IMG/VR virus record: IMGVR_UViG_2740892269_000001 | DNA length: 20,080 nt | DNA from: a virus | Taxonomy: Duplodnaviria; Heunggongvirae; Uroviricota; Caudoviricetes | Reading direction: 5' to 3' (one strand) | In this document: positions 1,101 to 20,080 of the stretch, piece by piece | Numbering within the stretch: position 1 is the stretch's first letter | Layout: every line of letters starts with the position of its first letter | Program-made: the position numbers and the translations under genes | The notes under the pieces: model-generated | Databases searched by the model: none | What the model was told of the DNA's origin: nothing | Seen by the model: the letters and a program-made list of their open reading frames with translations, nothing else

Positions 1101-1129
1101 ATGTAGATGATAATTATTATCATTTTGCG

Positions 1130-1330
1130 GGTCCTTTCCGGCGATCCGACAGGTTACGGGGCGGAAGGCGCGCGGGTTTTCGCTATTTATGACAATTTTC
1201 CGGTTTAAGGCGTTTCCGTTCTTCTTCGCCGTAACCTAATGTTTTTATTTAAAACACCCCCTGAAAAGAAAGGAAACGACAGGTGCTGAAAACGGGCTTT
1301 TTGGCCTCTGTCGTTTCCTTTCTCTGTTTT
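1130..1330. promoter_or_regulatory. cos: cos DNA-packaging site (cosQ - cosN - cosB with R3/IHF/R2/R1-type elements)
   Basis: Sequence ...gatccgacaggttacg | gggcgg... cgcgggttttcgctatttatga... is the lambda right-end/left-end junction as I remember it. Downstream are repeated cgtttcc-type elements (1211-1226, 1268-1283, 1308-1323), including a perfect 12-bp inverted repeat aggaaacgacag/ctgtcgtttcct around an A/T-rich tract, directly upstream of Nu1. Confidence 0.8.
1159..1170 (+). other. cosN 12-nt cohesive-end segment (GGGCGGAAGGCG), variant of the canonical lambda overhang
   Basis: Position fixed by conserved flanks (caggttacg on the left, cgcgggttttcgc on the right). The 12-mer differs from the canonical GGGCGGCGACCT at 5 positions. 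Confidence 0.55.
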
Positions 1331-1347: not shown

Positions 1348-1867
1348 ATGGAAGTCAACAAAAAGCAGCTGGCTGACATTTTCGGTGCGAGTATCCGTAC
1401 CATTCAGAACTGGCAGGAACAGGGAATGCCCGTTCTGCGAGGCGGTGGCAAGGGTAATGAGGTGCTTTATGACTCTGCCGCCGTTATAAGATGGTATGCC
1501 GAAAGGGATGCTGAAATTGAGAACGAAAAGCTGCGCCGGGAAGTTGAAGAACTGCGGCAGGCCAGCGAGACAGATCTCCAGCCAGGGACTATTGAGTACG
1601 AACGCCATCGACTTACGCGTGCGCAGGCCGACGCACAGGAGCTGAAAAATGCCAGAGACTCCGCTGAAGTGGTGGAAACCGCATTCTGTACTTTCGTGCT
1701 GTCGCGGATCGCAGGTGAAATTGCCAGTATTCTCGACGGGATCCCCCTGTCGGTGCAGCGGCGTTTTCCGGAACTGGAAAACCGACATGTTGATTTCCTG
1801 AAACGGGATATCATCAAAGCCATGAACAAAGCAGCCGCGCTGGATGAACTGATACCGGGGTTGCTGA

Positions 1868-1893
<26 letters not shown>
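1348..1893 (+). CDS. nu1: Terminase small subunit Nu1
   Basis: 181-aa ORF MEVNKKQLADIFGASIRTIQNWQEQGMPVLRGG... recognised as lambda gpNu1 (N-terminal winged-HTH DNA-binding domain); starts just after cosB and overlaps the A start. Confidence 0.95.
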
Positions 1894-5170
<3,277 letters not shown>

Positions 5171-7954: not shown

Positions 7955-8353
7955 ATGACGAAAGATGAACTGATTGCCCGTCTTCAGGAGCTGGGTGAGC
8001 AATTGAACCGCGATGTCAGTTTGACGGGAACGAAAGAAGAACTGGCGCTTCGTGTGGCAGAGCTGGAAGAAGAGCTTGATGACACGGATGAAACTGCCGG
8101 TCAGGACACCCCTCTCAGCCGGGAAAATGTGCTGACCGGGCATGAAAATGAGGTGGTATCAGCGCAGCCGGATACCGTGATTCAGGATACGGCTGAACTG
8201 GTCACGGTCGTGGCACTGGTGACGCTGCATACTGATGCACTTCACGCCACGCGGGATAAACCTGTGGCATTTGTGCTGCCGGGAACGGCGTTTCGTGTCT
8301 CTGCCGGTGTGGCAGCCGAAATGACAGAGCGCGGCCTGGCCAGAATGCAATAA
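7955..8353 (+). CDS. FI: DNA-packaging / head-assembly protein FI
   Basis: 132-aa protein MTKDELIARLQELGEQLNRDVSLTGTKEELALRVAELEEELDDTDETAGQ... recognised as gpFI. Confidence 0.9.
   Translation: MTKDELIARLQELGEQLNRDVSLTGTKEELALRVAELEEELDDTDETAGQDTPLSRENVLTGHENEVVSAQPDTVIQDTAELVTVVALVTLHTDALHATRDKPVAFVLPGTAFRVSAGVAAEMTERGLARMQ

Positions 8354-16258: not shown

Positions 16259-20080
<3,822 letters not shown>

Follow-up and report, generated by a model that had tools for sequence, protein, structure and literature searches.

The window, i.e. the whole stretch of 20,080 nucleotides analysed here, carries a lambda-type cos region followed by the genes of the two terminase subunits (Table 1). The CG dinucleotides of the two nick sites, at 1157-1158 and 1171-1172, lie 12 bp apart, and the overhang's left half (GGGCGG, 1159-1164) is intact. 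The cosB segment comprises R3, an inverted R2 and R1 at their lambda spacing from cosN, the cosQ-cosN and cosN-R3 spacings are unchanged from lambda in the alignment of cos regions, and Nu1 and A adjoin cos and read away from it. As judged from its sequence, the site has every defining feature of a lambda-type cos.

Table 1. Features of the cos region and of the adjacent terminase genes in the window
Feature	Position	Strand	Remarks
cosQ	1129-1135	+	GGGTCCT, packaging-termination element (PMC9026076); at lambda spacing upstream of the top-strand nick; identical to lambda/DE3
cosN core	1157-1172	+	16 bp, CG + GGGCGGAAGGCG + CG; flanking CG pairs and left half match lambda
cosN cohesive-end 12-mer	1159-1170	+	GGGCGGAAGGCG; predicted 12-nt 5' cohesive end, placed together with its nick positions by homology to the annotated cos of DE3
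Overhang, variable right half	1165-1170	+	AAGGCG, against CGACCT in lambda; holds all five differences
cosB R3	1209-1224	+	GGCGTTTCCGTTCTTC; TerS binding site in the lambda model (PMC9026076; PMC4669245); identical to lambda/DE3
cosB R2	1268-1283	-	Inverted; conserved in all five aligned sequences
cosB R1	1308-1323	+	Conserved in the same cos-region alignment
Nu1 (terminase small subunit, TerS)	1348-1893	+	Intact 181-aa ORF; homologues annotated as terminase small subunit/Nu1
Gene A (terminase large subunit, TerL/gpA)	1868-3362	+	Interrupted only by the N gaps 2319-2359 and 2717-2968

The window is a scaffolded draft containing five runs of N (2319-2359, 2717-2968, 4725-5000, 16789-17033 and 18763-19014), whose lengths are unreliable when compared with the gap-free IMG/VR contig L170: its stretches of 258, 466 and 249 bp are replaced here by 41, 252 and 276 N, respectively. 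Since these draft gaps are N-filled and wrongly sized, the apparent frameshifts and truncations in A, B and J are artefacts. Where gene A can be read it is open, and its pieces agree with the complete gpA from E. coli 582 in 148 of 150, 118 of 118 and 130 of 131 residues, and L170, which is 100% identical to the window, encodes the full 641-aa protein. A reading of genes A and J as pseudogenes was dropped, the non-matching segments being the N runs. The run nearest to cos begins at 2319, more than 1.1 kb away, so that the observation on the overhang is unaffected. On the minus strand (17274-19301), an open frame of 675 codons runs opposite the tail-fibre gene J; it stays open in part only because it crosses the N gap 18763-19014, but some 1.5 kb of true sequence in it (17274-18762) likewise lacks antisense stops.

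Read directly, positions 1148-1183 consist of GACAGGTTACG, then GGGCGGAAGGCG, then CGCGGGTTTTCGC. In the record of DE3, a lambda derivative, the annotated "cos site" (L002, 760-771) is exactly 12 bases long, GGGCGGCGACCT, and lies within identical flanks. A previous sequence-only reading of this DNA had proposed, from lambda-like flanks that it held to fix the position of the overhang, that a cohesive-end 12-mer within 1149-1180 departs from the canonical one at five of its bases; the 12-mer is indeed located inside that interval, the DE3 annotation confirms the use made of the flanks, and the count was right. The same reading regarded the canonical overhang as common to lambda and many lambdoid phages, which mostly holds and is not universal, N15 carrying GGGCGGCGTCCG and other right-half alleles being found as well. 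Alignment with lambda and other lambdoid cos regions gave seven identical bases out of 12 against lambda/DE3 and placed the five substitutions at positions 7 (C>A), 8 (G>A), 9 (A>G), 10 (C>G) and 12 (T>G), between flanks that match lambda perfectly.

These substitutions are concentrated far beyond chance in the overhang's right half. The closest canonical relative, E. coli UTAK-15, is 98.5% identical to the window over 401 bp and five of its six mismatches fall inside these 6 bases, a packing which indicates the replacement of an allele rather than scattered divergence. The window does not share all 12 bases of GGGCGGCGACCT and hence stands outside the canonical lambda overhang allele; because N15, Gifsy-1 and mEp213 differ from it too, the difference characterizes an allele and is not a trait defining the cos family. 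A local inversion was considered as the origin of the allele and rejected: the reverse complement of GCGACCTC agrees with the variant GAAGGCGC at 6 of 8 positions, versus 3 of 8 in the forward orientation, and an inversion is not more parsimonious than stepwise change because two extra changes are still needed. Intermediate alleles exist as well.

The distribution of the allele was determined with a 44-base megablast query centred on the 12-mer, over 5426 complete E. coli genomes. Each 28-base word of this query spans the 12-mer, so that every match contains it whole and exactly. In its cos context, GGGCGGAAGGCG was retrieved at 169 places in 158 of these genomes (153 chromosomal and 16 on plasmids). 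The 401-bp cos region was found at 8215 places in 4443 genomes, and the variant represents roughly 2% of the lambda-type cos sites and 3% of the genomes. The 12-mer was read directly in E. coli 582 (where one of four lambda-like cos regions is the variant), AR_0089 and FHI_NMBU_03, in the plasmids pAH01-1 and pG749_3, and in the phages YDC107_1, classified as Ravinvirus, and PhiR46_1 (PV340565), whose host is ECOR13 according to its record; both phage records are in prophage order and neither begins at cos. An unbiased sample of IMG/VR gave, among the matches listed, 115 canonical sites, 3 AAGGCG and 2 single-base variants, and targeted scans of the same resource recovered AAGGCG in 51 viral contigs with about 20 distinct left-flank haplotypes. 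Two gap-free contigs, L170 and L181, match the window at 100% identity in the cos region and over 2.3 kb. The targeted scans also revealed other, rare right halves (CAGGCG, AAGGCT, CAGACG, CTGACG, AAGCGT, AGACCT, TGACCT and CGACCG), among which CAGGCG, AAGGCT, CAGACG, CTGACG and CGACCG are intermediates as expected under drift with relaxed constraint. Among the GTDB representatives, a thin sampling of one genome per species, the allele was present only in Escherichia sp. E1V33 and in none outside Escherichia. AAGGCG is the major alternative allele among the lambda-type prophages of E. coli.

The AAGGCG cosN and lambda-type Nu1/A modules occur on plasmid replicons of roughly 46-63 kb (pAH01-1, L008, 46.9 kb; pG749_3, L010, 62.6 kb), those of about 46 kb being phage-plasmids. 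YDC107_1 (L006) is classified with N15 in Ravinvirus; N15 has the GGGCGGCGTCCG cosN and a different cosB. The spacer running from cosQ to the TACG beside the top-strand nick (1136-1154 in the window; loci L005-L010 and L134-L186) is very polymorphic, with forms such as GACAGGT, GGCAGGC, AGAACGT and GGCCTGT; cosQ and the four bases immediately preceding the nick are constant despite this polymorphism, and AAGGCG is met on about 20 spacer haplotypes. Between cosN and R3, position 1193 of the window (lambda bp 35) is C, a minority SNP among the 165 variant and canonical loci (A in 147, G in 10 and C in 8). One cos site of IMG/VR (L121) displays a change in the left half, GGGCGACGACCT (G6A), an element thought to be constrained, and one contig with the variant allele has GGGCCCT instead of GGGTCCT as cosQ; these two may represent defective copies or errors of sequencing.

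No co-variation was observed between the terminase and the cosN allele. Within a comparison set of 31 gpA sequences from variant loci and 37 from canonical loci, none of the residues sorts with the allele, the largest difference in frequency being 0.44, and association tests on the residues of Nu1 were likewise negative. A single gpA protein, identical at 641/641 residues, and five Nu1 proteins accompany both alleles, and in a first, smaller sample (8 variant, 36 canonical) gpA sequences averaged about 99% identity, whether compared inside an allele group or across the two. Moreover, the 641-aa gpA is intact at 32 of the 35 variant loci having enough downstream sequence. A partial linkage was observed between the cosN allele and SNPs of the cosB region at lambda bp 71, 97 and 137 (1229, 1255 and 1295 in the window): at bp 71, for example, C is found in 49 of 54 variant loci and T in 91 of 111 canonical ones. 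Each of the three linked SNPs is also found with the canonical allele, and UTAK-15 combines the same haplotype with a canonical cosN. A subtle co-adaptation in cis of the cosN allele and the cosB SNPs may underlie this pattern.

The genetics of lambda cosN provide a framework for these observations. Mutations at bp 7-12 have a minimal effect, whereas the symmetric mutations in the left half are severe (PMC4669245, citing Xu & Feiss 1991); in particular, G2C lowers the yield of lambda about 10-fold and C11G has no phenotype (PMC4669245). Natural variation follows this tolerant half, at bp 9 and 12 in N15 and phiD326 and at bp 8, 9 and 11 in Gifsy-1, while the CG pairs flanking the nicks are highly conserved and cosQ is conserved (PMC4669245). 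TerS bound to R3 anchors TerL for the nick in the bottom strand and a second TerL nicks the top strand (PMC9026076; for the role of R3 also PMC4669245), and the spacing between cosN and R3 is critical for accurate nicking (PMC9026076). With all five changes within bp 7-12 and the known constrained elements unchanged, the sequence of the window fits the published lambda rule exactly.

Very probably, the window holds a functional lambda-type cohesive-end site (cosQ-cosN-cosB, then Nu1 and A) carrying a common natural cosN allele. The steps of its processing would be those of lambda: Nu1 at R3 would anchor gpA for a bottom-strand nick between bp 12 and 13, largely whatever the neighbouring sequence, and a second TerL would nick the top strand 5' of bp 1, in dependence on the conserved GGGCGG and the flanking CG. 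The same terminase would therefore be expected to cut the variant site like that of lambda; homology and the lambda genetics thus predict both the exact nick positions and a normal cleavage efficiency. The virion would then have 5'-GGGCGGAAGGCG at its left end and the complement, 5'-CGCCTTCCGCCC, at its right end, which should anneal to each other about as stably as those of lambda. Both overhangs contain 10 G+C out of 12 and their nearest-neighbour Tm are 46.3 °C for the variant and 47.8 °C for lambda; with equal G+C and nearly equal predicted Tm, self-cyclisation should be unaffected, and the allele would be effectively neutral for packaging. Counting against this interpretation, positions 10 and 12, both changed, adjoin the bottom-strand nick, and of the five symmetric pairs that lambda cosN has, two are lost (3/10 and 6/7, with 4/9 gained), which leaves a twofold symmetry of 8/16 bp here versus 10/16 in lambda.

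The one predictable consequence of the allele concerns the pairing of its ends with canonical lambda ends. A variant end pairs with a canonical end at only 7 of 12 positions, so that hybrid chromosomes with mixed ends should cyclise poorly: the two-base mismatch between lambda and N15 ends causes about a 4-fold loss of viable yield (PMC4669245), and a mismatch of five bases should cost much more. AAGGCG might on this ground mark off a second group of cohesive-end compatibility within lambda-type packaging modules that can otherwise replace one another, and not be a mere product of neutral drift. The carriers often share a cell with canonical-cos prophages and the ends are non-complementary, by which hybrids arising from mixed cuts would be kept from cyclising. 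If true, the allele would act as a mild barrier of isolation or anti-interference, keeping it at a few per cent on many backgrounds; we regard this proposal as doubtful, with a small but appreciable chance of being correct.

A switch of specificity, in which the variant cosN would be cut only or preferentially by a co-evolved terminase, as lambda and 21 are separated through cosB and Nu1, is improbable. The changes beside the bottom-strand nick, the reduced symmetry and the partial linkage with cosB SNPs would be in line with it. Against it, the allele is tracked by no residue of gpA, the two alleles share identical gpA and Nu1 proteins, gpA is as similar between the allele groups as within them, and R3 is identical to that of lambda; furthermore, lambda and N15 terminases are without cosN specificity, giving equal yields on either cosN, and right-half changes are tolerated (PMC4669245). 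The sequence-only reading had raised possible consequences for packaging specificity, on the ground that cosN bases affect nicking by terminase. This is unlikely, given the confinement of the changes to the tolerant bp 7-12 (PMC4669245) and the identical terminase proteins.

Very improbable, too, is a shift of the nicks giving a real overhang other than the 12 bases deduced by homology. The nick positions of the carriers are indeed placed by homology, and lambda-like phages have overhangs of other lengths, ranging from 7 to 12 nt (PMC9303873). The nick-site CG pairs and the cosQ-cosN and cosN-R3 spacings are however unchanged, the latter spacing being critical (PMC9026076), and the terminase is the same as beside the canonical allele.

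The decay of the 12-mer in a defective prophage that no longer packages DNA, another of the options left by the sequence-only reading, deserves hardly any credence. In its favour, gene A at first sight falls about 430 bp short and is divided among several ORFs, J is split too, and some related prophages carry pseudogenes, the portal and J genes of ET82 being so annotated. The splits in A and J nevertheless coincide exactly with N runs, what can be read of gene A is open and has 98.7% or more identity with an intact gpA, and cosQ, GGGCGG, the CG pairs, R3/R2/R1 and Nu1 are all intact. Decay, moreover, would not change five bases within 6 bp and spare about 300 flanking bases near-identical to those of functional phages, nor would it yield the same 12-mer at 169 places in E. 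coli and in 51 viral contigs. As for a sequencing or assembly error, which a low-quality scaffolded draft with five wrongly sized N gaps could suggest, it has a negligible probability and is excluded by the recurrence of the identical 12-mer in complete, independently sequenced genomes, plasmids, viral contigs and phage records, including two gap-free contigs 100% identical over 2.3 kb, and by the distance of more than 1.1 kb to the nearest gap. Among the three options of the sequence-only reading, that of a real cos variant is thus the one borne out, the 12-mer recurring in many independent genomes, viral contigs and deposited phages beside intact terminase genes.

The variant is ordinary, neither a defect nor an error, and probably entails no change in packaging specificity; its one notable trait is that five of the six tolerant positions are changed beside an essentially lambda-identical terminase. 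Natural variation in cosN's right half is already established, and the AAGGCG allele is new or at least not visibly described: a full-text literature search for the 12-mer and its complement returned only unrelated papers on plants and Streptomyces, its scope leaving aside the survey of Vahanian et al. (2017), and a literature search on the PhiR phages gave no paper that describes them. That survey (Vahanian, Oh, Sippy & Feiss 2017, Virology 509:140) is reportedly dedicated to natural cosN variation and is the likeliest place for the allele to be tabulated. The significance of the allele is mainly one of annotation. The lambda overhang is not invariant in the lambda-type prophages of E. coli, about 2-3% of which have GGGCGGAAGGCG, and tools or cloning and packaging protocols keyed to the canonical 12-mer will miss such elements or fail on them. 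The allele also adds a natural case of five substitutions to the rule, already published, by which constraint is limited to cosN's left half and the nick-flanking CG. If its ends are confirmed by experiment, it would diverge more than any other right-half allele yet associated with an essentially lambda-identical terminase.

Among known systems, the cos of lambda (overhang GGGCGGCGACCT) is the closest, sharing with the window the flanks, cosQ, the CG pairs, GGGCGG, R3/R2/R1 and their spacing, as well as Nu1 and A downstream; the gpA of the relatives compared are about 99% identical. It differs by its overhang, changed in the window at positions 7, 8, 9, 10 and 12, and by its greater number of symmetric base pairs (10 of 16, against 8). 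The cosN of N15 and phiD326, GGGCGGCGTCCG, is likewise a natural lambda-like cosN with changes in the right half only, including the same G at position 12 as in the window, and that of N15 was shown by experiment to be cut equally by lambda-specific and N15-specific terminases (PMC4669245). N15 has, however, only two changes relative to lambda (9 and 12), a cosB with a single R3 and a TerL 64.9% identical to that of lambda (PMC4669245), whereas the cosB and gpA of the window are of lambda type. The cosN of the Salmonella phage Gifsy-1 (bp 8, 9 and 11; PMC4669245) and the mEp213/LLS overhang GGGCGGCGCGCT (bp 9 and 10; PMC12315714) are also modified in the right half only, by other substitutions and in more distant relatives of lambda.
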